Source: Candidatus Hodarchaeota archaeon
GTDB taxonomy: Archaea > Asgardarchaeota > Heimdallarchaeia > Hodarchaeales > Hodarchaeaceae
Length of the DNA stretch: 64,000 nucleotides
Assembly: GCA_016840035.1 (NCBI GenBank)
Contig: JAEOTC010000038.1
Span: 78,760 to 142,759 of the forward strand
Direction: 5' to 3'
This document shows positions 6,471 to 18,874 of this stretch, one piece after another. A program made the translations under genes and the position numbers. Numbering within the stretch: position 1 is the first letter of the stretch; every line of letters begins with the position of its first letter. The notes beneath the pieces were generated by a model. The model saw only the letters and a list, made by a program, of their open reading frames with translations, did not search any database and was not told the DNA's origin.

Positions 6471-7649
6471 TCATAAAACAGCACTCTCAAGCAAGTTCTT
6501 TGTCTTTAAGGCCATCATGTATTCTTCATCGGTAGGAATAACCACAACTTCTATTTTGGATTCTGAAGATGAAATAATCACTTCTTCCTCTCCATTAGCT
6601 CCCTCGTTCTTTGAGATATCAATGGAAACATCTATACTATTCAGTCCCTTCACTATCAGTCTTCGAAAGTAAGAAGATCTCTCACCTATCCCACCTGTGA
6701 ACACAATCGCGTCTAATCCTCCCAAAGCAATAAGGTACGCTCCAATATATTTCCGAATTCTGTAGGCAGCCATCTGAACAGCTAATTCTGCAGAGTGACT
6801 CCCCTTCAGAGCACTTTCCTGGATATCCCGCATATCTCTAAAATTCCCTGTAATTCCCAATAAGCCACTCCTTGAATTTAATTCTTGATCGATTTGATCA
6901 ATGGTCAAATTTCCAGAACGCATCATAGCTAGTATTAAACCTGGGTCTATATCCCCCGATCGCGTGCCCATTATTAGGCCCTCTAAAGGAGTTAACCCCA
7001 TACTTGTATCAATTGATTTTCCATCATATACAGCTGTTACTGAAGCTCCATTCCCAAGATGTAAGACGATTAGCTTTTTAGATTTCTTTAAACTAAGTAA
7101 ACTTCTCGTTCTATTAGTCACATATTCAATAGATGTTCCATGAAACCCATATCTCCGGAAAGAATTTTCCTCATACCACTTTCCTGAAATCGCATATCTG
7201 TATGCATATTCTGGAATCGTAGCATGAAAAGAAGTATCAAAAACTGCAATATGAGGAATAGCTGTTAATTTTTTTTTACTAGCTCGGATTCCAATTAGAT
7301 TAGCGGGATTATGAAGTGGGGCAAGCTTTGATAGTTTTTCTATCTGAGATTCAACCTCAGTATCAATGATCAATTCTCTTCGGAACTGTTCTCCCCCATG
7401 TACTACACGGTGAGCTACAGCTTTAATCGTATTAATGTCGAAGAATGTTAAGACATAATCTACAGCCTCTTCATGAGTAGCACAACTTATTACCTTGGTA
7501 ACTTCCTCCTCCTTGCTTTTATGATATATCTTTGGTTCAGGGAGGCCTATTCGTTCCACTAATCCTTTAGCTATTAGCTGTTCTTTCTCCATGTTATAGA
7601 TCGAATATTTTAGAGAGGAAGATCCTGAATTTATCGTTAAAATTGTCAA
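6471..7649 (-). CDS. ackA: Acetate kinase
   Basis: INSGSSSLKY, HRVVHGG, APLHNPANL, RRYGFHGTS, HLGNGAS, DTSMGLTPLEGL, FTGGIGE, IPTDEE. Confidence 0.97.
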   Translation of the reverse strand: MTILTINSGSSSLKYSIYNMEKEQLIAKGLVERIGLPEPKIYHKSKEEEVTKVISCATHEEAVDYVLTFFDINTIKAVAHRVVHGGEQFRRELIIDTEVESQIEKLSKLAPLHNPANLIGIRASKKKLTAIPHIAVFDTSFHATIPEYAYRYAISGKWYEENSFRRYGFHGTSIEYVTNRTRSLLSLKKSKKLIVLHLGNGASVTAVYDGKSIDTSMGLTPLEGLIMGTRSGDIDPGLILAMMRSGNLTIDQIDQELNSRSGLLGITGNFRDMRDIQESALKGSHSAELAVQMAAYRIRKYIGAYLIALGGLDAIVFTGGIGERSSYFRRLIVKGLNSIDVSIDISKNEGANGEEEVIISSSESKIEVVVIPTDEEYMMALKTKNLLESAVL

Positions 7650-7659
7650 AAAGACCCCT

Positions 7660-9108
7660 CTAGTAGGTACCTTTAGGTGTATCAGTCCCTTTTACAATAG
7701 CAATGGATGCTGATGCACCAATCCTAGTTGCTCCAGCGTTTATCATCTGCTCTGCAATCTCGTGAGTTCTTATCCCTCCAGCTGCTTTTACACCCATTTC
7801 TGGACCTACTGTTTTTCTCATCAGAGCAATATCCTCAACTAATGCTCCTGCAGTACTGAAACCTGTAGAAGTTTTAACAAAATCTGCTCCACTTAATTTT
7901 GTTAACAGACTACCTTTAACTATTTGTTCCTTGGTTAGTAGAGCAGTTTCAAGAATGACCTTTACTATGGCTTTCCCTGCAGCGGCATTTACTACCGCTT
8001 GGATATCCTCCCTAACTAAGTCATCGTTACCTGATTTCAACGCTCCCACGTTAATAACCATGTCTACTTCATCTGCTCCATTTGCTACAGCATCTCGAGT
8101 TTCAATTGCCTTTACGGTGGGGGTAGTTGCTCCTAATGGAAATCCAATTACAGTACATACTTTCACTGAGCTACTTTTCAAATATTTGGCTGCTTTTGCT
8201 ACATTTGTAGGATTAATACATACTGATGCGAATTTATACGTTGCAGCTTCTTCACATAGTTGTTTAATCTCTTCTTCAGTTGCATCTGCACGGAGATTAG
8301 TATGGTCGATATACTGAGCAAGCTCCATATCATACCCATTTATCCCTGTCTCAGAGGTAATTCTTGTTGCTCCTCCATTAACTAATGCTTTAACAGCAGC
8401 TTGAGACTTTCCATCTAATCCAATCTCTTTCCCTGAAGTCCCAATTGTGTATGATCGATCAGAGGTGGTTGGGATATAGGGAGAGGGTTCTTGATCAGTT
8501 ATCTGATGAACATCAACAATTTTGATTCCCATAGTCCTTAATTGATCAATAATTCCCTCAATACGTCTATTCATTGCAGGTGGGACTTGATCTTTCTCAA
8601 TCTGACAACAGTAGATGGAATCATATGCTGCAATAACTGGTTTTCCATACATCAATCCAAATACTAGGGTTATAGTTCCCAAGGAATCTGCGTTCAAGGC
8701 CGCTACTTTAGCTGCAGTATTTAAGGATAATATAGGCACATAAATAACATCTACCCGACTTAAAATATTGTCAAAAAACTGTTCAGAATAATCAGTAATA
8801 ATTGTGGCTCCTTCAGAGACTTGTCTAATATCAGGTAAACCAATTATTTTTATTGCTGCACGAGTCATTACGATGTAAGTATTAGTATACGATTTTGAGA
8901 TTTTTTCTATTTGGTGCATAACTTCATTAATCTCTTTATTCCCCCCACATAGTAGAATTAAAGCTGAGTTTCCTGAAGCTATTGTATAATTGATTTTCCG
9001 ATTAGAAGTCTGTAAATTCGAATCGAACTGTTGTTTGGGAGCGAGATTATCTTGATCAAGCTTCCTCATCACTTCTTCAGTGATTTTCTGTATCATCTCA
9101 TTACTCAT
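7660..9108 (-). CDS. deoC: Deoxyribose-phosphate aldolase with N-terminal encapsulation peptide and flavoprotein-like domain
   Basis: C-terminal [36 protein letters not shown] (Schiff-base Lys), GVKAAGGIR; extra ~260 aa N-terminal region ([12 protein letters not shown]). Confidence 0.92.
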
Positions 9109-9128
9109 TTTCTTTACCCAAAATTATT

Positions 9129-9419
9129 TTAACTTAATTCAGTTTGTTTTCCATCCACTTCAATATAATCAATAACACCTACTATTAATGCATCCACAGC
9201 GGCTTTGTCATTATGCATTATACCTCGTATAGAGTTACCTTCTCGGATAACAAGGACACAATCCCCGATTCCAGATTTGGCTACATCTAGAGCGATGATA
9301 GAAGGCTCAGTGAAATTTCCTTTCAGATCTATCGGACGTACCACAAGTATTTTTCCGTTTTCATGACTCTCAGTTTTAATTGGAGCAACTACATTGCCGA
9401 TTACTTTAGCAAGAATCAT
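9129..9419 (-). CDS. eutN: BMC-P vertex (pentamer) shell protein, EutN/CcmL family
   Basis: MILAKVIGNVVA.IK...IALD...GIGD.VLV..EG...DA.IVGVID. Confidence 0.93.
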   Translation of the reverse strand: MILAKVIGNVVAPIKTESHENGKILVVRPIDLKGNFTEPSIIALDVAKSGIGDCVLVIREGNSIRGIMHNDKAAVDALIVGVIDYIEVDGKQTELS

Positions 9420-9958
9420 TCTGTTTCACTTTCTACAATTTTTGGTTTAATTTCACGAATCTTTTTTGGTTTCTTCTTTCGAGTGGCCCTTTTTCTTGGT
9501 TTTGGTTTAACTACGGGCTTAATTTCTTCAACTACTTCGGGTTCCTCTACTTTCGTTTTCGGGATCGGTTCAAGTATCTCCTCTTTGGGAATTTCCCCGA
9601 TTTCTTCATCTAGACTTATATCAACTTGTTTTAATGTTGCTGGAGGGGCCTTCTTCTTCTTTCTCTTCTGAGGTTTGCGTTTTGCACTTTTTGTAACATA
9701 ATATTCCTCAATATATCCAACTATACACTCATCAATCGGAACGAGTTCCTTTGGAAAGACAATAGCTGCCTCCTTTTTACTTACTACATACACAATATCT
9801 CCAGGTCCTGCAGTTTCAATGCCATCAGCGGCAACATATGGACTTCCCAAGGGTTGAAGATTATCATCTAGACCTTGAACTACTAGAAGTCGGAGAGAAT
9901 TTAATCCTGGATCTTTTGTTGAGGCAACAACATTCCCTATTACTTTTCCAAGTTTCAT
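9416..9958 (-). CDS. BMC-P vertex protein with long charged C-terminal tail
   Basis: MKLGKVIGNVVASTKD...VAADGI..AGPGD...PIDECIVGYIE followed by ~90 aa Lys/Glu/Pro-rich tail. Confidence 0.9.
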   Translation of the reverse strand: MKLGKVIGNVVASTKDPGLNSLRLLVVQGLDDNLQPLGSPYVAADGIETAGPGDIVYVVSKKEAAIVFPKELVPIDECIVGYIEEYYVTKSAKRKPQKRKKKKAPPATLKQVDISLDEEIGEIPKEEILEPIPKTKVEEPEVVEEIKPVVKPKPRKRATRKKKPKKIREIKPKIVESETE

Positions 9959-9962
9959 GTAA

Positions 9963-10421
9963 TCACGCTGATTTTAAATATTTCAATTCAATCTCGGAAA
10001 TCTTATTTACTCTGGTCTCGTGTCTTCCACCACCGAAAGGAGTAGATAACCAAATCTTAACAATATTTTGCGCAATTCCTGGACCAATTACTCTCGCACC
10101 TAAAGTCAGGATGTTAGAATTATTGTGTTCACGAGCGGAATTCGCAGTAAATTCATCCGTGCAAGGAGTTGCTCGAATTCCTTTAATTTTATTTGCTACA
10201 ATTGCGCTAGCTACGCCTGTACCATCGATGAGAATCCCAACGGATTCAACTGAGACTGCAACTGTTTGTGCTACTAATAATGCAATATCAGGATAATCCA
10301 CAGGATCTGTAGAATAACAACCATAGTCCGCAACTTCGTATCCTATTCCTTTCAGGAATTTTATCAGATCATTTTTGAGATGGAAACCACCATGATCCGA
10401 TCCAATTATTATTTTCTTCAT
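9963..10421 (-). CDS. rpiB: RpiB/LacAB-family sugar-phosphate isomerase
   Basis: GSDHGG, VDYPD, ANKIKGIRA, AREHNNSNIL, FGGGRH..RV. Confidence 0.93.
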   Translation of the reverse strand: MKKIIIGSDHGGFHLKNDLIKFLKGIGYEVADYGCYSTDPVDYPDIALLVAQTVAVSVESVGILIDGTGVASAIVANKIKGIRATPCTDEFTANSAREHNNSNILTLGARVIGPGIAQNIVKIWLSTPFGGGRHETRVNKISEIELKYLKSA

Positions 10422-10446
10422 TTGACTTCAACTTGTAATATAAAAC

Positions 10447-10998
10447 TCAAAGCAGAGTTTTTACTAGATCTGGATGAGGAGCAGGAATTACAGCAGTGGA
10501 TAATACTAATCCTTCTCCTTTTACACGATTAACCCCAGCATCTACAGCTGCTCGCACGGCACCCACTTCTCCTGTTAAAACAACAAACGCCTTTCCACCT
10601 ATTGCGCGACTCATCCGAATTTCGATTAACTGTACCTGCGCACTTTTAACAGCTTCGTCACCAACCATGATCGCTGTAGGAGCAGAATAAGTTTCTACTA
10701 CTCCTATCGCGCCTACTTTTTCAACTCCAGATGTACCCGCAATTGCTGGAAAAACCTCAGGATGTATATTGGGAATTACTGTGTAATTTACTAAGGTTTC
10801 ACCTGCTATTTCACTTCCAGCGATTAGAGAGCTTTGAACAGCTGCAACTGCTCCTTGAATAATGATTAAATATTTTCCAGGACATACTGGTGAGGCGAAT
10901 AATAGCTCGACTTCTGCTGTTTTCGCTATTGTATCGGCACTCAGTATACCTCGAGCAATTACATTTGTTTCTAGAACTCCTATAGCACGCATTTTCAT
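10447..10998 (-). CDS. pduT: BMC-T tandem-domain shell protein, PduT-like
   Basis: Two BMC domains; PVCPGKY retains the PduT Fe-S Cys position; GGKAFVVLTGEVGAV. Confidence 0.9.
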   Translation of the reverse strand: MKMRAIGVLETNVIARGILSADTIAKTAEVELLFASPVCPGKYLIIIQGAVAAVQSSLIAGSEIAGETLVNYTVIPNIHPEVFPAIAGTSGVEKVGAIGVVETYSAPTAIMVGDEAVKSAQVQLIEIRMSRAIGGKAFVVLTGEVGAVRAAVDAGVNRVKGEGLVLSTAVIPAPHPDLVKTLL

Positions 10999-11037
10999 TT
11001 TCCTCTAAGATTGTAAACAAAGATGAAAGTAGTGAGC

Positions 11038-11061
11038 ATTAGCTGCTCTCTTGCAGCTAAT
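11038..11061 (-). promoter_or_regulatory. Intra-operon hairpin after the major BMC-H gene
   Basis: Perfect 9-bp inverted repeat ATTAGCTGC-TCTCTT-GCAGCTAAT. Confidence 0.5.
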
Positions 11062-11068
11062 TGTTTAT

Positions 11069-11347
11069 TCAACCTTTCTTTGGGAGAATACTCTCAACTT
11101 CATCATGGGGTCGAGGAATTACATGAGCTGAGGTTAGTTCACCAACTTTTCGTGCAGCGACTGCACCAGCTTCAACAGAAGCTTTCACAGCACCAACGTC
11201 ACCTCTAACCATTACAGTAACAAAACCACCGCCAATAACTTCGCGTCCCATTAAATGAACGTTCGCTGCTTTCACCATAGCGTCAGCTGCTTCAATAGAT
11301 GCAACTAACCCTTTTGTTTCTATCAATCCAAGTGCTTCTTTAGCCAT
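11069..11347 (-). CDS. BMC-H hexamer shell protein (EutM/PduA-like)
   Basis: [10 protein letters not shown]...[11 protein letters not shown]...RGDVGAVKA...HVIPRPH; ATG at 11347 preceded by GGTGA. Confidence 0.97.
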
Positions 11348-11371
11348 TTTTTTCACCAATTTTTTTGTCTT

Positions 11372-12697
11372 TTATTTTGTCTTTTCAATGACAATTTCTT
11401 GTCCAATTTTGCGAATAATTCCGCTAATACTAGCATGAATTACTGCACCTAGTGACCCATCTGGAATCTTTCCTATGAGTGCACCTTTTTCAACCGAATC
11501 TCCTACTTTTACCGTTGGAATTGCAGGATCTCCGATATGTTGTTTGAGAGGGATGGAAACTTTTCGAATCTGTAATTTTCGTTTTCGTATTGGACATTCA
11601 TGATTATAATTCAATAGATCCAATCGTGAAATTAATCTTTTTACAGGTAATTTTCGATATTCCCTCTCAGGATGAATCGATAATACTTTTCGATTATGAG
11701 TATTCTTTAAACCCTCTACCCTCAACTGTCCCTTTACTTCTGTCATCATTTTACATGGATCCAACCCCATAGGACATCCATAATATGTACAAGCTCCACA
11801 TTCCACACAAAGGAATGTTCCCGTCATATAATCGGGTCTTTCTGGAGCACCCCATGCTATTCCTCGCATAACTTTGTCAGGATGTAATTCATGGCCCAAT
11901 AAGAATCTAGGACAGACATCTGTACATAATTGACATCTTATGCATGCTGCTTTGGTAACAATTACTTTGGATGAGATCCGTTCAGTTTTCATTCTGATTA
12001 CAAAATGATTCTCTGGCAAAACAATTATTCCAGAAGTTAATTTGGTAATAGGTTTTTTAGGGGCAATTACTGTACCCATCATGGGTCCATTTATCAATAC
12101 TTGATAATCATCGATTGTAGCTCCCCCTGCAGCTTTTATTGCATCCTTTATTGAGGTACCAATTGGAAATTCCATCGTAGAGGGGTTTTTAACAGCGCCT
12201 GTTATGGTTACATAACGAGATACTATGGGATTTCCTTCAGCGGCCTCAGCTAGATTGATCAATGTATAGACATTATTTACTACGACTCCAATGTCAAGAG
12301 GGAGTCCACTTTCCGGAATTATTTTACCTAAAGCTTCATAAACAAGAACATGTTCATCTCCAGCAGGATAAACATCATCGAGAAGGAATATCTCGATTCT
12401 GGAATCAGCTTTGACCACTTGTTTAAGCTTCTTAATTGCAGTTTTATACTTCCTTTTTACAGCGATTATTCCTCGCTTCGCCCCAGTGGCTTTCATTCCT
12501 AGCTGTAATCCAGTTATTAATTTTCCTGGACAGGTTGTCATTAATTGCTGATCCACTCTTAATAATGGTTCACATTCAGCTGCATTAACTATAAACGTAT
12601 CTACTTTCGCAGAAAGCTTCACATGTGTAGGAAAACCAGCTCCACCAGCTCCAACTATTCCAGAATTTCGTGCCATGTCTGCTATTTCGGAGCTCAC
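11372..12697 (-). CDS. pduS: PduS/RnfC-like flavin and Fe-S oxidoreductase
   Basis: GIVGAGGAGFPTHVK, NAAECEP, YPAGDE, two CxxCxxCxxx(x)CP clusters, C-terminal PLKQHIG barrel. Confidence 0.92.
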   Translation of the reverse strand: MSSEIADMARNSGIVGAGGAGFPTHVKLSAKVDTFIVNAAECEPLLRVDQQLMTTCPGKLITGLQLGMKATGAKRGIIAVKRKYKTAIKKLKQVVKADSRIEIFLLDDVYPAGDEHVLVYEALGKIIPESGLPLDIGVVVNNVYTLINLAEAAEGNPIVSRYVTITGAVKNPSTMEFPIGTSIKDAIKAAGGATIDDYQVLINGPMMGTVIAPKKPITKLTSGIIVLPENHFVIRMKTERISSKVIVTKAACIRCQLCTDVCPRFLLGHELHPDKVMRGIAWGAPERPDYMTGTFLCVECGACTYYGCPMGLDPCKMMTEVKGQLRVEGLKNTHNRKVLSIHPEREYRKLPVKRLISRLDLLNYNHECPIRKRKLQIRKVSIPLKQHIGDPAIPTVKVGDSVEKGALIGKIPDGSLGAVIHASISGIIRKIGQEIVIEKTK

Positions 12698-12724
12698 TTA
12701 TATTTGCCTCGTTTTCTTTTGATT

Positions 12725-14152
12725 TCAAATGATTCTAAAAGCATCCACTAGAGTACAACGTCTTTGACGTGTAAAAGTTCTTGCTGAGGTAAGTCCTTCT
12801 CCCGTTGGTCCTGCAATTGTCATAGTAGTATAGCCTTCCCCTCCGAATCCAATCCCAGCAAAGGAGGGGGCATTTTTGACAAAAATTGTAGTTTCGATAT
12901 CTTTTGCCACAAGACTCATATTTCCAACTGAATCGCTCCACATCATTGCTGTGTGTTTGAATCCATGTTCAGCCTTCTTTGCTTTTTGCAAAGCTTCTTC
13001 TATTGATTTCACTCTAACTATTGGTAAGACTGGCATCAACATTTCAGATATTACGAAGGGATGTTCATCATCAGGCACCTCTGCAATTATCAACCGGATA
13101 TTGTCACTAACCTGCACTCCGATTCCCTCAAGAAGTATTTTGGCATCTTTTCCGATGAAGTCCCTGTTTACTATGGGAAATCTCCCTTTCTTTCCTTTGA
13201 AAACGAGATTAGTCAGTTGGACTATCTGATCTCCAACAATTTCATATGCACCATAATTCTTCATTTCTGCTTTTAATCGATCAGTGATGACATCAAATGC
13301 GAATACTTCTTTTTCTACAATACATACAATATTATTATCAAAACTTGCGCCTTCTACTATTCCTCGGGCTGCTTTTTGAATATTTGCAGTATCATCAACT
13401 ATTACAGGAGGATTTCCTGGTCCTGCACATATCGCTTTTTTTCCAGATTGCATTGCAGCTTTTACTACTGCACTTCCTCCTGTTACAACTAGACACCGAA
13501 TCTTTTTGTGTGTCATTAAAGTCTGGGCTGACTCAATCGTAGGGGATATGGTTGATGTAAGAACATTTTCTGGTCCCCCCGCTTCGAGAATTGCCCTATT
13601 CAATAATCTCACAGCTTCATTACTTGCTCTTTTAGCTGATGGATGAGGATTAAATACTACGCTATTTCCTGCCGTAACCATTGATATTCCATTGTTAATT
13701 ATCGTTGCTGTTGGGTTTGTTGAAGGAGTAATTGACCCAATTACGCCATAAGGAGCCATTTCAACAAGTGTTAATCCTTTATCACCCGTCCATGTATTTG
13801 GTACCAGATCTTCTAAGCCTGGAGTTTTTCGAGCACAGAGCAAATTCTTTGCTACTTTATCCTCTAATCTCCCTAGACCAGTTTCTTGGATTGCTAATTC
13901 AGCTAGATATCGTGCATGTTTAATAGCGGAGTCACGCATCGATTGTATGATTTCTTTTCTTCTCTCCAAAGATAAATCCATTAGTGCTACTTGACTCTTT
14001 TCCGCAGCCTCTATTGCCTGTTCAATGTCCTGGAATATTCCTCCACCTGCACTAGTGGGAATATTCTCCAATCCTGAATAGACTTGATAAGCTCTTATTT
14101 TCTGTACAACAGAATTGACGATTTTTGCAATTTGTTGTTCGTCATATGACAT
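12725..14152 (-). CDS. eutE: CoA-acylating aldehyde dehydrogenase (EutE/PduP family) with N-terminal encapsulation peptide
   Basis: PSTNPT, FNPHP, TGG, AGPGNPP, FDNNIVC (catalytic Cys), GPTGEGLTSARTFTRQRRC. Confidence 0.95.
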   Translation of the reverse strand: MSYDEQQIAKIVNSVVQKIRAYQVYSGLENIPTSAGGGIFQDIEQAIEAAEKSQVALMDLSLERRKEIIQSMRDSAIKHARYLAELAIQETGLGRLEDKVAKNLLCARKTPGLEDLVPNTWTGDKGLTLVEMAPYGVIGSITPSTNPTATIINNGISMVTAGNSVVFNPHPSAKRASNEAVRLLNRAILEAGGPENVLTSTISPTIESAQTLMTHKKIRCLVVTGGSAVVKAAMQSGKKAICAGPGNPPVIVDDTANIQKAARGIVEGASFDNNIVCIVEKEVFAFDVITDRLKAEMKNYGAYEIVGDQIVQLTNLVFKGKKGRFPIVNRDFIGKDAKILLEGIGVQVSDNIRLIIAEVPDDEHPFVISEMLMPVLPIVRVKSIEEALQKAKKAEHGFKHTAMMWSDSVGNMSLVAKDIETTIFVKNAPSFAGIGFGGEGYTTMTIAGPTGEGLTSARTFTRQRRCTLVDAFRII

Positions 14153-14199
14153 TTATCTACCTTCGTTTCGTTTTTTATTTTCTTACATAAAGGGAAATC

Positions 14200-14490
14200 T
14201 TATTTTCGATAAGTTTCTTTTCCATTTATTTGGATAAAATCTATGATAGCTTGGATCGTTGCATCTGTGGGTTTATCCTTGGTCATTGCAGTTAAACGAG
14301 ATGAACTTCCAGTAACAACTAGTACTAATTCGTTCTCTCCCGCACCAACTGCATCAATTGCCACGAAAGGAGAACTCTCTGGTTTTAAATCAGTCATATC
14401 CACTGGTTGTACTATCATTAATTTAAAGCCTTTAATACTGGCATCCTTCTCGGTACTTACTACATTTCCTATTACTTTACACACTTTCAT
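14200..14490 (-). CDS. eutN: BMC-P vertex shell protein, EutN/CcmL family
   Basis: KVIGNVVSTEK...VAIDAVGAG..E.VLVVTGSSSR...DATI.AIID. Confidence 0.95.
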   Translation of the reverse strand: MKVCKVIGNVVSTEKDASIKGFKLMIVQPVDMTDLKPESSPFVAIDAVGAGENELVLVVTGSSSRLTAMTKDKPTDATIQAIIDFIQINGKETYRK

Positions 14491-14501
14491 GTAAATATCT
14501 C

Positions 14502-15221
14502 CTAAATCTTAATTATCTTTATATCAAGCATTTTAGCTTTTTCTTGTGCTAAGGGGGTAATAATAGTTGAATGGGGTACAAATATTTCGTGAATTTTACC
14601 TTTTAATCCCTCTAAATAATCCTCGGTAATTAAATCTGGTATAGCTGGAGTATGTTTGACAAATTGATCTTCTAAGTCCTCTATGTCAACAAGTCTGAAT
14701 CCCATTTCGATTAAAGTAGATAAATATCGACTCAGATTATTAGTTAACATACCCGATGGGCCATAGTCAAATGTTAAATCTGTGGGAGGAAAAGGTGTTA
14801 CAATATAAACAGGAATTTTAAATAACAACCCTTGAAGTAATAAATTAACAGTTGAATTGGAATCTTCAAATTTTGTTATTTTTTTTGCTATTTCAAAACT
14901 AAAGGCACCAAACATAATTGATTTAAGATTACTGTAAAAATTTAGGCAAAAATCTCCAAAAGGATTAACTAAAACGTCCATTGTGGGAATTGAACCTGCT
15001 TTTGTGGTTATTTTCTTAGCCTGGTCAATTTCATCCTTTGTCCAGATCAGGACTTGCATTTTTTGTTCGGCTAATCTAATTAGGGATTGTAATAATTCAT
15101 CCAATCCTTGTCCCATATGGGTTAAGACACCTAGGACATCGTAAGGACCTAGGTTATGCTCATTCTTGAGAACACTCTTAACTTGCTGTGTAACGAGTAA
15201 TTCGAGCTCTTTCTCATTCAT
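14502..15221 (-). CDS. BMC-associated flavoprotein-like protein with putative encapsulation peptide
   Basis: N-terminal amphipathic helix (ELELLVTQQVKSVL), degenerate flavoprotein-like core, C-terminal LITE...IITPLAQEKA..L.I.I motif seen in BMC ancillary proteins. Confidence 0.6.
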   Translation of the reverse strand: MNEKELELLVTQQVKSVLKNEHNLGPYDVLGVLTHMGQGLDELLQSLIRLAEQKMQVLIWTKDEIDQAKKITTKAGSIPTMDVLVNPFGDFCLNFYSNLKSIMFGAFSFEIAKKITKFEDSNSTVNLLLQGLLFKIPVYIVTPFPPTDLTFDYGPSGMLTNNLSRYLSTLIEMGFRLVDIEDLEDQFVKHTPAIPDLITEDYLEGLKGKIHEIFVPHSTIITPLAQEKAKMLDIKIIKI

Positions 15222-15236
15222 GATGCTTCACTCTTG

Positions 15237-15548
15237 TTAATCTCTTCCAGGATCCTCTTCTACGCTTGAAGTTCGACTTCTGACTTTCTCAATAAGATCA
15301 ACCGTCACCTGATCAGGTCTTGGAATTACATTAGTTAATAAACCACAGGAGATCTGACGTAGTTGGACTTTTGCTGCTTCAATTGCTTCACGGACAGCAG
15401 CGACCTCTCCCTCAATTATCACAATAACCAATCCCCCTGAAACACGTTTTAAGGAAATAAGGCTCACATCTGCGGTTTTCATGGCCGTATCTGTTGCCAC
15501 AATGGCTCCTATCCGACCGCATGTCTCCATAAATCCTAAAGCTTTCAT
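15237..15548 (-). CDS. BMC-H hexamer shell protein (divergent)
   Basis: KALGFMET.G...ATD.AMKTADV...GEVAAV...NVIPRP; ATG at 15548 after AGGTGA. Confidence 0.92.
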   Translation of the reverse strand: MKALGFMETCGRIGAIVATDTAMKTADVSLISLKRVSGGLVIVIIEGEVAAVREAIEAAKVQLRQISCGLLTNVIPRPDQVTVDLIEKVRSRTSSVEEDPGRD

Positions 15549-15553
15549 TAAAA

Positions 15554-17410
15554 TCACCTGAACGGAGAATAAGATCCTTCTTTTAAATCCAAAATCAGAC
15601 TCCCCATTTCTCCCGTATTCAGTGCAAGAGCATTACCCTCGTCAAGGTCTAAATGGAGCTCCAAATTATAATCCGGGTGAATTCTAACCATGATCTCGTC
15701 TAGGATTCCAGCTCGGGTTCCAGGAAATTGAACAGCAACTATCTGTCGATCTGACACATTTAACCTTTGCGCATCTTTTGGTGACATGTGGATGTGTCGC
15801 GCTGCGAAAATGACTCCCTTATCCAAAGTGATAGCTCCCTTTGGACCAATTATGTGTACTCCTGGAGTATCTCTTAAATCTCCTGATTGACGTGTTGGTG
15901 GATTAATACCTAATACATAACCGTCACTCCGAGATATTTCAACTTGAGTTTCGTCTCTGAAGGGGCCAAGAATACGAACTCCATAGATGGCTCTTTTGGG
16001 GCCGATTAGATCAACAACTTCTTTGCATGCATACTGTTTTGGTTGAGTTAAGGAATTAAGGGGAGTTAAAACTGCTTTTTCTCCAAATAATTTGTGAAAA
16101 TCGGCTTTTGAAAGGTGGATGTGACGTGCAGATAAGGATACTGGAATTAAATGATCATCGAATACTTTAGTCAGCTCATCGGTGACTAATCTCTTCACTA
16201 GTTCTCCAGCTGCTGACTGTGTACTTCGTTGTGAAATGGGTTGATATTCACAACCTAATGGACCGCAATATCTTCCTACATATTCAGCAGAGGGTCTATA
16301 AATCACTGGTTTGACGGTAGGAGTTTCGGGATACTTCTCTTCTAAAACATGAGCAGTCCAACCAGCGACTCTCGATGTAGTAAAAATCGGTGTAAAGAGT
16401 TCAACTGGGATATTTAAGCTTGTATATACCGTGGCACCATATAGATCCACATTAGGATATATTCCACGATTTTTTCGCTTCTTAAATTCTTTTTGAGTAA
16501 TCTCAACCAACTTATTGGTAGTTTCATACATCCATTGAGCTAATCCACCCTTCCTTCTCACAAGATCTGCAGCCATTTCCTTCAATATTTTGGCTCTCGG
16601 ATCTGTAGTTTTATATACGGCATGTCCCATCCCCATAATTCGTTTACCTTCATTAAATCGATTTTTGACCCATTCCTCAGCACTTGAGACTTTCTTAATC
16701 TCCATTAAGCTTTCATAAACTAAATGATTAGCTCCCCCATGATACATCCCTGATAAAGAACCAATGGCACCAGAAATAGATGCATATAGATCCGCTCCAG
16801 TAGATGCAATGACCCGAGCTGTGAATGTGGAAGCATTGAAAGAGTGTTCTGCATGTAGAATTAGTGTGACATCAAAGATCCTTGCTTCTTCATCAGTTGG
16901 GATACTCCCATGAAGCATGTAGAGGAAATTTGATGCATATTTTAGATTCTTATTTGGAGCGATTGGTTCTTTATTGCTACGAATTCTCTCCCATGCGGTC
17001 ACAATAATAGGAAGCCGAGCTATTATTCTAATTGCAATATTTCGATCGGATTCTCTTTTTCCAGTCCCGATCTCGTTGTTGTATCCTGCTAGTAAAGCTA
17101 ATGAAGATTGGAGTACACTCATAGAAGGGGTATTCTTTGAGGTTTTCTGTAAATGTGAGATTAATTGTGGTGGTAAATCCTGATTTGAAATTATTGCGTT
17201 CTTAAAACTCTCCAATTGATCAAAAGAGGGGAGGTTTCCGTACAGAAGTAAGTAAACTACCTCTTCGTAGGTTGAATTTCTTGCTAACTCATTAATGTCA
17301 TAACCTCGGATAAATAGATTGCCTTTTTCACCTTCTATAAGACAAATATTTGTATCCGCAACCTCAACACCGCGAAGTCCTGTTGATTTGTGGCTATGTT
17401 CTTCAATCAT
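15554..17410 (-). CDS. Citrate (or 2-methylcitrate) synthase fused to PduL phosphotransacylase
   Basis: N-terminal ~390 aa: GLRGV, HAEHSFNASTF, HGGAN, GMGHAVYK..DPR, PNVD. C-terminal ~190 aa: SARHIHL, RHIHM, LHLDLDEGNA. Single uninterrupted frame. Confidence 0.92.
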   Translation of the reverse strand: MIEEHSHKSTGLRGVEVADTNICLIEGEKGNLFIRGYDINELARNSTYEEVVYLLLYGNLPSFDQLESFKNAIISNQDLPPQLISHLQKTSKNTPSMSVLQSSLALLAGYNNEIGTGKRESDRNIAIRIIARLPIIVTAWERIRSNKEPIAPNKNLKYASNFLYMLHGSIPTDEEARIFDVTLILHAEHSFNASTFTARVIASTGADLYASISGAIGSLSGMYHGGANHLVYESLMEIKKVSSAEEWVKNRFNEGKRIMGMGHAVYKTTDPRAKILKEMAADLVRRKGGLAQWMYETTNKLVEITQKEFKKRKNRGIYPNVDLYGATVYTSLNIPVELFTPIFTTSRVAGWTAHVLEEKYPETPTVKPVIYRPSAEYVGRYCGPLGCEYQPISQRSTQSAAGELVKRLVTDELTKVFDDHLIPVSLSARHIHLSKADFHKLFGEKAVLTPLNSLTQPKQYACKEVVDLIGPKRAIYGVRILGPFRDETQVEISRSDGYVLGINPPTRQSGDLRDTPGVHIIGPKGAITLDKGVIFAARHIHMSPKDAQRLNVSDRQIVAVQFPGTRAGILDEIMVRIHPDYNLELHLDLDEGNALALNTGEMGSLILDLKEGSYSPFR

Positions 17411-17643
17411 TGGTAGGCCTTTTTATTTCAAGTAAGATTTCGGTATCAAAAGGTGAAACTTCCTTCCCTTAAAAATCGCTCTTTCAAACGTCTGACGATT
17501 CAAAATGGTAATTTCTTCCCAAACTTACTGAATGTTAATCTGGTTAATATGAGAGAGTTATTTTGTATTATAGATAACCAATAACACTATATAATAGATA
17601 GTAGCTTTTATTAGAAGACTATTCTCTTTGGAGGTTATTATCT

Positions 17644-18591
17644 GTGATGATTAGAGGCTTTTCAAAATATACTTCTTTTACTTGTTCGGATTGTCACATG
17701 AAATGCTGTGCGACCGAGTTCAATCTTCCAATAAGTGGGTTAGAAAAAGAATATCTTACCCAAAATTTTCCAGAATATCGACATTACTTACAATCTACAG
17801 AAAAAGGATCTTTTATACTCCGAGGAAACTCATGTCCTTTCTTGACAACCGCTGGATTGTGCCAACTGCATGCTAAATCAATAAAACCTCTTACATGTAG
17901 AATTTACCCCTTAATTTTCTGGCGATTCAACCAAAAAGATACTTTAGTTTCTATACATCCCTGTCGGGGACATGGATTTCAATGGTATTCTAGAAAGAAA
18001 TCATCTGTTGGTAATAGCTTTATCAATCAGCTATTATCTGCTAGTAAGGAGTATTATGACACTTATTGGGGGGAAGAAATCGATGCAAACAATCCTTATG
18101 AGGGAATTTCTCAAGCAAGAATTAAAGACCAACTCGAAGCTTATCGTCATACTTCAAAGGATAAATTGCTAGTAACCAACTTGAAAAACCCTGATTTATC
18201 CTCACGAATTCCATTTTCTCAGGCGTTTCAGGAGAAGGCTTTAGAGATCATCGATGGAGGGAGCATTGGAAATTTTTTAAATTCTGTTTTCAACTGGTTA
18301 ATTTGGAGTCCAGTAGGCTTGCACTTATCAATAAAAAATGCTCAAACGCTTTTTACTACCGCTGCATTATGGTTAATTGACCAAACTGAGGTAAATTCGA
18401 ACATACTTTCCTCTATTCCTCCTGAATCACAGTATTATGAGCAAACATCCTCGTTCTATGCGAGTTCCTTAACTCCTTCTTTCTGGGAAAATATCCTCGC
18501 TCAGAAAACCCTCCCCACTCTAAGTACCTTTGCAGAGAAAGTCCGCTTAATTCTCATGGGAGAACTTCCACAAGATGATTTACTTAAATGA
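17644..18591 (+). CDS. YkgJ-family cysteine-cluster protein
   Basis: CSDCHMKCC, CPFL, CQLH, KPLTCRIYP. Confidence 0.8.
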   Translation: MMIRGFSKYTSFTCSDCHMKCCATEFNLPISGLEKEYLTQNFPEYRHYLQSTEKGSFILRGNSCPFLTTAGLCQLHAKSIKPLTCRIYPLIFWRFNQKDTLVSIHPCRGHGFQWYSRKKSSVGNSFINQLLSASKEYYDTYWGEEIDANNPYEGISQARIKDQLEAYRHTSKDKLLVTNLKNPDLSSRIPFSQAFQEKALEIIDGGSIGNFLNSVFNWLIWSPVGLHLSIKNAQTLFTTAALWLIDQTEVNSNILSSIPPESQYYEQTSSFYASSLTPSFWENILAQKTLPTLSTFAEKVRLILMGELPQDDLLK

Positions 18592-18691
18592 AATCGTTCT
18601 TTTTGAAAAACGTGAACTTGTAGGTAAACTGTTAAGAAGGAATCAGAAAAGACTATAGAATGACGAAGAGTCGCTATACGAGTGATTTATT

Positions 18692-18874
18692 ATGGCAGGA
18701 AGTCACGGAAGCCTTACAAAAGCTGGGAAAGTTCGAAATCAAACTCCTAAAGTTGAAGGACGTAAAAGAAAAGGATTAACACCTATCTTACGCAACAAAA
18801 AGAATTATATTAAGAGAATTGTTAAAGAGATGCCGGTAGGTCAACCTGAATATCGTCAAGAACGTCGAAGGTAA
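18692..18874 (+). CDS. rps30e: 30S ribosomal protein S30e
   Basis: SHGSLTKAGKVRNQTPKV. Confidence 0.95.
   Translation: MAGSHGSLTKAGKVRNQTPKVEGRKRKGLTPILRNKKNYIKRIVKEMPVGQPEYRQERRR

Follow-up and report, generated by a model that had tools for sequence, protein, structure and literature searches.

A citrate synthase–PduL fusion as a candidate dual CoA-releasing cargo enzyme of a Hodarchaeales sugar-phosphate microcompartment

The closest described counterparts of the gene considered here are fusions of citrate synthase (CS) to the phosphotransacylase domain PTAC, or PduL, which were reported among the 'archaeal microcompartments' of Hodarchaeales (Du et al., 2025, bioRxiv, PMC12747264). In that preprint, CS and PTAC were both described as releasing CoA, by distinct routes, a predicted encapsulation peptide (EP) was recognized as the linker between the two domains, and GFP-tagged enzymes were recruited to shells in E. 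coli in an EP-dependent manner (PMC12747264). Here we follow up the initial annotation of such a gene in a 64 000-nucleotide stretch of Candidatus Hodarchaeota archaeon DNA (assembly GCA_016840035.1, contig JAEOTC010000038.1, positions 78,760 to 142,759 of the forward strand; hereafter 'the window'). This CS–EP–PduL gene heads a microcompartment operon. It is the orthologue, in another species, of the CS+PTAC of the preprint's reference operon (GCA_003144275), which it matches in architecture, operon position, proposed dual CoA release and linker EP and from which it differs in nothing essential. L017, from the 'B3_Heim' MAG, presumably the preprint's reference genome, is 85% identical to it over the CS half. 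Hence neither the fusion nor the targeting peptide in its linker nor the proposed two-way CoA release is new (PMC12747264), and we found no other paper in the literature that joins citrate synthase, a bacterial microcompartment and PduL. What we add is the probable archaeal descent of the CS half and bacterial descent of the PduL half, a series of surviving intermediates, the apparent restriction of the architecture to one clade, and the presence of ATP-citrate lyase (ACL) genes. In its main text, the preprint takes up neither the descent of the CS half nor the architecture series, and ACL goes unmentioned there (PMC12747264).

More distant counterparts are known for each half. The PduL half resembles rPduL of bacterial metabolosomes (structure 5CUO) in that the two align without gaps, share the RH.H motifs, carry an EP helix right before the catalytic domain and are encoded in a microcompartment operon; the fusion differs in its archaeal host and in that its EP is internal, with a 395-residue CS in front. 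The CS half shares ∼40–45% identity across the whole domain, catalytic motifs included, with the archaeal/type II dimeric citrate synthases 1AJ8 and 1IOM, but it falls in a subclade of mostly archaeal members that has a C-terminal YCGP.GC tail, and it is joined to EP–PduL. Fusions of PduL with an enzyme catalysing an adjacent reaction are also seen in bacterial metagenomic proteins (P0034–P0052) that combine acetate kinase (AckA) with PduL, some with an additional cyclic-nucleotide-binding (cNMP-binding) domain; there the partner catalyses a sequential step, whereas CS represents a competing branch. Further PduL fusions bear Cob_adeno_trans or aminotransferase domains.

Integrity, linker and distribution of the fusion

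The gene and its parts are located as follows (window coordinates).

15554..17410, minus strand: CS–EP–PduL fusion gene (P0001), 618 aa, at the head of the operon; open reading frame (ORF) translation, Pfam PF00285 and PF06130
16226..17410, minus strand: citrate synthase domain, residues 1–395, including the clade-specific C-terminal tail YRPSAEY..YCGP.GC; Pfam, alignment to 1IOM and 1AJ8, invariant residues
16154..16225, minus strand: linker, residues 396–419, a variable spacer (396–403) followed by an amphipathic helix with the motif.L...LV.QELQK; junction alignment
16196..16198, minus strand: in-frame GTG (Val405) with GGAG 5 nt upstream, a proposed internal start judged to be a chance feature
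15557..16153, minus strand: PduL (phosphotransacylase) domain, residues 420–618; Pfam PTAC, NF011652 and 5CUO alignment

The initial annotation had described an intact CS that runs in frame through a linker into a full PduL. Indeed, the ORF listing and translation gave a single open frame of 618 aa without stop or frame change, in which both Pfam domains are complete: Citrate_synt matches residues 11–373 (model positions 1–356 of 357, E 1.1e-122) and PTAC/PduL (PF06130) residues 423–597 (positions 1–175 of 176, E 1.9e-70). All three catalytic residues named at the outset, His224 (HGGAN), His263 (GHAVY) and Asp322 (PNVD), are present, align with the HGGA, GH.VY and NVD motifs of the solved enzymes 1IOM and 1AJ8, and are invariant in 28 fused homologues. 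Arg272, Arg347 and Arg372, presumably the oxaloacetate/citrate-binding arginines of the family, are likewise invariant. The PduL half scored 249 bits against NF011652 (phosphate propanoyltransferase; cut-off 209), and its gap-free alignment to 5CUO covers chain residues 5–188 with both RH.H motifs present. The residues reported as ligands of the two-metal site of rPduL in its 2016 structure paper, His48, His50, Glu109, His157, His159 and His204, map by the offset of this alignment to H430, H432, E491, H539, H541 and H586, again without variation among the 28 homologues. The CS–EP–PduL fusion is therefore confirmed as genuine, with the catalytic motifs of both halves intact.

Residues 396–416 correspond to the linker STQSAAGELVKRLVTDELTKV quoted in the initial annotation, which had likened it to an amphipathic EP helix. 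This holds: its helical hydrophobic moment of 0.54 is at the 99th percentile of the protein's 14-residue windows, and the motif.L...LV.QELQK is conserved; the linker of the orthologue was tested in the preprint (PMC12747264). In an AlphaFold2 (AF2) model built from a 28-sequence alignment, which rendered the CS domain confidently and which we used for this helix only, DSSP assigned a helix to residues 401–419 at low pLDDT. Encapsulation peptides are short amphipathic helices (∼15–20 aa) separated by a variable spacer from the catalytic domain, a pattern that the linker shows; they are also expected at a terminus, whereas the helix of the fusion is terminal only relative to the PduL domain. The motif is internal in all fused proteins and N-terminal in PduL-only and split PduL proteins (e.g. 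that of genome G008), while in 'extended' CS proteins (CS-EXT), which have no PduL domain, it follows immediately on the CS domain. The spacing from CS to helix is equal in fused and extended forms, and that from helix to PduL is equal in fused and PduL-only forms.

We determined the distribution of the Citrate_synt + PTAC architecture by a cluster search with the PduL part alone as query and with targets restricted to proteins of 339–1082 aa. Both Pfam domains recurred together in ∼33 protein clusters (609–649 aa when full-length, 57–79% identity to the PduL half), whose named members are all from Hodarchaeales or Heimdallarchaeota, the annotation also carried by the closest homologues of the 618-aa protein. 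Among 24 Hodarchaeales species genomes, nine encode PduL, and in eight of these nine, including the single-contig genomes G009 and G010, it is fused to CS in a frame of 615–625 aa, which disposes of the objection that homologous loci always carry two separate genes; in the ninth, G008, CS and PduL are separate. When 1.84 billion representatives at 50% identity were searched exhaustively with phmmer, a single match spanned both halves (P0022, 903 bits), the other top hits being to CS only. A more distant fusion would be expected to score above ∼300 bits and hence to be listed, and the architecture therefore appears to be confined to this clade. In addition, PduL exceeded the Pfam cut-off in three of 201 sampled Asgard genomes, all three of which carry the fusion.

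The window genome (G000) is a metagenome-assembled genome (MAG) of 4.3 Mb in 293 contigs and is 87% complete. A Pfam scan of this assembly found the fusion to be its only full-length CS; the other Citrate_synt matches were the C-terminal domain of the ACL subunit AclA and a 259-aa CS-like protein, which covers the C-terminal part of the domain only and may be a citryl-CoA lyase.

As had been noted, the fusion is the first gene of its operon, which comprises the co-oriented genes from 6471 to 17410, with two BMC-H, one BMC-T and three BMC-P shell genes. Its remaining members and the presumed promoter region are listed below.

6471..15557, minus strand: rest of the operon, in listed order BMC-H, a 239-aa protein with a domain of unknown function (DUF), BMC-P, acylating aldehyde dehydrogenase (AldDH), RnfC/PduS-like flavo-iron-sulfur NADH dehydrogenase, BMC-H, BMC-T; Pfam
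6471..15557, minus strand, continued: RpiB, BMC-P with tail, BMC-P, flavoprotein–DERA (deoxyribose-phosphate aldolase), acetate kinase; Pfam and TIGR00126 (deoC)
17411..17643, no strand: AT-rich intergenic region that separates the fusion gene from a divergent CxxCxxCC-domain gene (17644–18591, plus strand), presumably the operon promoter region

Thus PduL is followed by BMC-H, BMC-T and BMC-P shell genes and an acylating AldDH, the setting in which it is expected. DERA, RpiB and the acylating AldDH stand with the three types of shell gene in one locus, and by this gene content the operon is a sugar-phosphate-utilisation (SPU) metabolosome.

Ancestry of the two halves and order of events

In CS trees (IQ-TREE, LG+C20 PMSF), all shell-linked CS, whether fused, split or extended, fell into one clade (SH-aLRT 97–98). 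The sister group consists of stand-alone CS of ∼400 aa; the contexts seen were HIT–CS–sucD–sucC in Hodarchaeales genome G014 and in P0065, and a scan of G014 detected neither shell nor PduL genes. Farther out were an Asgard CS of another class (G135 = P0099) next to isocitrate dehydrogenase, those of Bathyarchaeota, Nitrososphaeria and Methanoperedens, and a small Thermodesulfobacteriota subclade. The stand-alone CS gene of G014 (L014:1492-2691, minus strand), which is closest to the shell-linked clade and lies beside sucCD, is interrupted by a single in-frame TAG, so that either a pseudogene or a sequencing error may be at hand.

The PduL half has a different background. The 23 Hodarchaeales PduLs are monophyletic (SH-aLRT 100), with Bacillota as the nearest named relatives; for the operon, transfer from Myxococcota has been proposed (PMC12747264). 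Because the neighbours of CS in the trees are archaeal, and because PduL is rare in Asgard genomes and has bacterial relatives, the fusion is best read as an archaeal CS, of native descent from the tricarboxylic acid (TCA) cycle type, joined to a bacterial-type PduL.

The first genes of the operons compared showed five architectures.

(a) Type II operon (L097/L098): CS of 530 aa, consisting of CS, an EP-like helix and a ∼43-aa C-terminal module, in an operon without PduL
(b) CS-EXT with a separate EP–PduL (L133: CS of 496 aa, 19-nt gap, PduL of 223 aa; L099/L100 alike)
(c) Split form (G008): CS of 402–406 aa without EP, 47-nt gap, EP–PduL of 234 aa
(d) Fused form: the window gene
(e) PduL-only operon head (L129, with upstream neighbours as in the window, i.e. 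S30e and the CxxCxxCC gene; also L130)

Homology links the C-terminal module of CS-EXT with the C-terminal end of the operon's 239-aa DUF protein (47% identity over 43 residues, E 6e-9). Its pattern, ..LITE..(about 15 aa)..ITPLA.(D/E).A...I.I, occupies residues 196–237 of the DUF protein (14502–15221, minus strand), residues 486–528 of the extended CS P0068 and the C-terminus of P0074; a Pfam search of the module at E up to 10 returned only an insignificant E3_binding match (E 0.15).

In the PduL tree, PduL-only heads such as L130 and the PduLs adjoining CS-EXT branch first. The fused forms lie within one clade of 16 rows, in which the PduL-only L129 group is nested, and the split PduL of G008 is sister to the fused P0021/P0022 (SH-aLRT 97). 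This topology suggests a single fusion within Hodarchaeales, followed by one secondary split and one loss of CS. Most likely, the fusion arose inside Hodarchaeales from adjacent genes, the first encoding CS, EP and a small domain and the second EP–PduL. It may have formed when the DNA between two similar EP helices, that of CS-EXT and that of PduL downstream, was deleted, which would have removed the C-terminal module and the intergenic spacer; such a deletion fits because the spacings are conserved on both sides of the helix.

The position of the fusion as first gene had also been taken as a possible record of the grafting of a bacterial locus onto a host gene and promoter. The trees uphold one part of this idea, in that the CS half is of archaeal host-type ancestry. 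Grafting in situ is not favoured: L129, whose neighbours upstream are those of the window (S30e and the CxxCxxCC gene), begins with PduL alone. Given this PduL-only head, and given that deeper lineages have a separate CS with its own EP, it is more plausible that a host CS was recruited into the operon than that the locus was grafted onto it.

Proposed function and competing explanations

We interpret the fusion, with a probability of about 0.7, as a bifunctional cargo enzyme of the Hodarchaeales SPU microcompartment that releases CoA in two ways and is an archaeal–bacterial chimera. Within the shell, DERA together with the acylating aldehyde dehydrogenase would convert deoxyribose-5-phosphate to acetyl-CoA, thereby trapping CoA. 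The PduL domain would then turn acetyl-CoA into acetyl-phosphate and free CoA, the acetyl-phosphate leaving the compartment to yield ATP via the acetate kinase of the operon. Alternatively, the CS domain would combine acetyl-CoA and oxaloacetate by condensation, which likewise frees CoA, and the citrate would exit for the TCA cycle, biosynthesis or ACL. The single helix between the domains, formerly the N-terminal EP of PduL, would send both activities to the lumen in a 1:1 ratio. Such a two-way branch of acetyl-CoA with CoA freed on both routes had been proposed in the initial annotation; it is the most economical reading and was reached independently in the preprint (PMC12747264).

Several points weigh against this interpretation. 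The model assumes that oxaloacetate and citrate can cross the shell. The best NCBIfam match of the CS half is TIGR01800 (cit_synth_II, a mixed 2-methylcitrate/citrate synthase II family), at 413 bits against a cut-off of 421. AF2 gave pLDDT < 50 for the PduL domain and the linker. The trees came from 'quick' searches and contain several polytomies, and the single fusion with later split and loss is a parsimony argument on weakly supported nodes. Furthermore, a Myxococcales CS (G024; L021, P0074) that shares the EP and the C-terminal module is placed within or next to the shell-linked clade, and an approximately unbiased (AU) test did not reject monophyly of the Hodarchaeales shell-linked CS without the Myxococcales CS (p 0.287). 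The first recruitment of CS to the compartment could thus have occurred either in an archaeon or in a bacterial donor. The G024 MAG (L021, L107) has 50% GC, matched by the GC content of its CS gene; it carries an SPU-type locus, no detectable PduL and a satellite CS of 507 aa, in which an EP-like helix is combined with this C-terminal module.

The CS domain could be mainly a scaffold, with the CS–EP–PduL chain cross-linking cargo and nucleating the compartment core and CS catalysis being secondary. This is compatible with a bifunctional cargo enzyme, and we consider it doubtful as the main role. CS forms obligate dimers, PduL associates with itself, the internal EP is placed between these two self-associating domains, and CS is also found fused to another compartment-linked module, the one common to the DUF protein of the operon. 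However, none of the catalytic and substrate-binding residues of CS varies among the 28 homologues, whose identity goes down to 60%, and this speaks for selection on catalysis.

It is unlikely that the CS domain is a 2-methylcitrate synthase and that the fusion handles propionyl-CoA, linking the compartment to the methylcitrate rather than the TCA cycle. Preference for acetyl- or propionyl-CoA is not readable from the sequence, because the CS half lies just under the cut-off of the mixed TIGR01800 subfamily, which is its top NCBIfam match, and the PduL half over that of phosphate propanoyltransferase. PduL enzymes accept propionyl-CoA, as is established for Pdu compartments. On the other hand, the signature enzymes DERA and RpiB of this operon yield acetaldehyde, hence acetyl-CoA, sister CS genes adjoin sucCD and isocitrate dehydrogenase in a TCA context, and the 87%-complete assembly gave no second full-length CS.

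We also think it improbable that the two neighbouring genes merely fused without functional targeting of CS, such that CS would work on the cytosolic face or the protein would stay outside the shell. An internal rather than terminal EP is unusual, and with no other full-length CS found in the assembly the cell may need CS activity in the cytosol. Yet extended CS proteins that lack a fused PduL domain still have one or two EPs, three other fusion-bearing genomes (G002, G010 and G020) retain a second, distant CS paralogue (∼40% identical and placed far away in the CS tree), and the preprint reports EP-dependent recruitment of the orthologous CS+PTAC to shells (PMC12747264).

A still less probable alternative goes back to the proposal that initiation at GTG 16198 gives a stand-alone EP–PduL in addition to the fusion, i.e. 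two products from one gene. GGAG-N5-GTG is present in the window, and two fused lineages (P0027 and P0022) keep an in-frame ATG at the position where PduL-only genes begin, probably a remnant of the start codon once used there. In contrast, GGAG is absent from seven other distinct fused loci, where the codon is GTT, GTA, ATA, GTC or ACA; among the fused loci compared, GGAG-N5-GTG was seen in this window alone, and the internal start is not supported.

Finally, an assembly or frameshift artefact that joins two separate genes, as one might suspect in a 293-contig MAG with one relative (G008) in the split form, can be dismissed, since the same frame is kept at 57–85% identity in dozens of independent assemblies, G009 and G010 included.

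Further operon features and a possible citrate shuttle

Other features of the locus touch on the genes around the fusion. The first BMC-H gene probably starts at ATG 15548 (MKALGF...), 5 nt past the fusion stop; GTG 15557, the start of its longest ORF, overlaps the stop codon. One BMC-P gene (9416–9958, minus strand) encodes 180 aa with the EutN domain at residues 1–83 only; its tail of ∼95 aa may be the counterpart of a disordered region, K/R-rich and DNA-binding, that the preprint describes (PMC12747264). The DERA gene (7660–9108, minus strand; 482 aa) has DeoC at residues 262–472, preceded by ∼260 aa without a Pfam match that have been called a flavoprotein domain (PMC12747264). Upstream of the operon, a divergent CxxCxxCC-domain gene occurs in the window (17644–18874 region), in G008 (L013) and in L129, that is, at fused, split and PduL-only heads alike; it is followed by the gene for ribosomal protein S30e in the window and L129, and probably also in G008 (a 96-aa ORF).

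Genes for ACL are present in the window genome, where aclB and aclA lie on contig C281 (L003, L132), separate from the operon contig. In a type II Hodarchaeales operon (L097:6731-9866, and also L098), aclB/aclA stand immediately upstream of the shell-linked CS on the same strand; in a related contig they are absent from this position. Tentatively, the chimera might represent the luminal half of a citrate/oxaloacetate shuttle, in which acetyl units leave the compartment as citrate and cytosolic ACL regenerates acetyl-CoA, and CS might be the sole luminal CoA recycler in type II operons and in the Myxococcales genome G024. The eukaryotic citrate shuttle (mitochondrial CS and cytosolic ACL) offers an analogy, with CS inside a compartment that acetyl-CoA cannot cross and ACL genes in the same genome; it differs in that the archaeal boundary is a protein shell, not a membrane, and that no carrier is known, and homology of the compartments is not implied.

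Hodarchaeales are the archaea closest to eukaryotes, in which microcompartments are a striking recent discovery, and the CS–PduL fusion is one of their odd features. By joining a host-type TCA enzyme to a bacterial organelle enzyme, it documents the wiring of an imported compartment into the central metabolism of its host, and the surviving intermediate architectures suggest how the fusion was formed. With ACL present in the genome, and adjacent in one lineage, citrate-based export of acetyl units becomes a testable idea.

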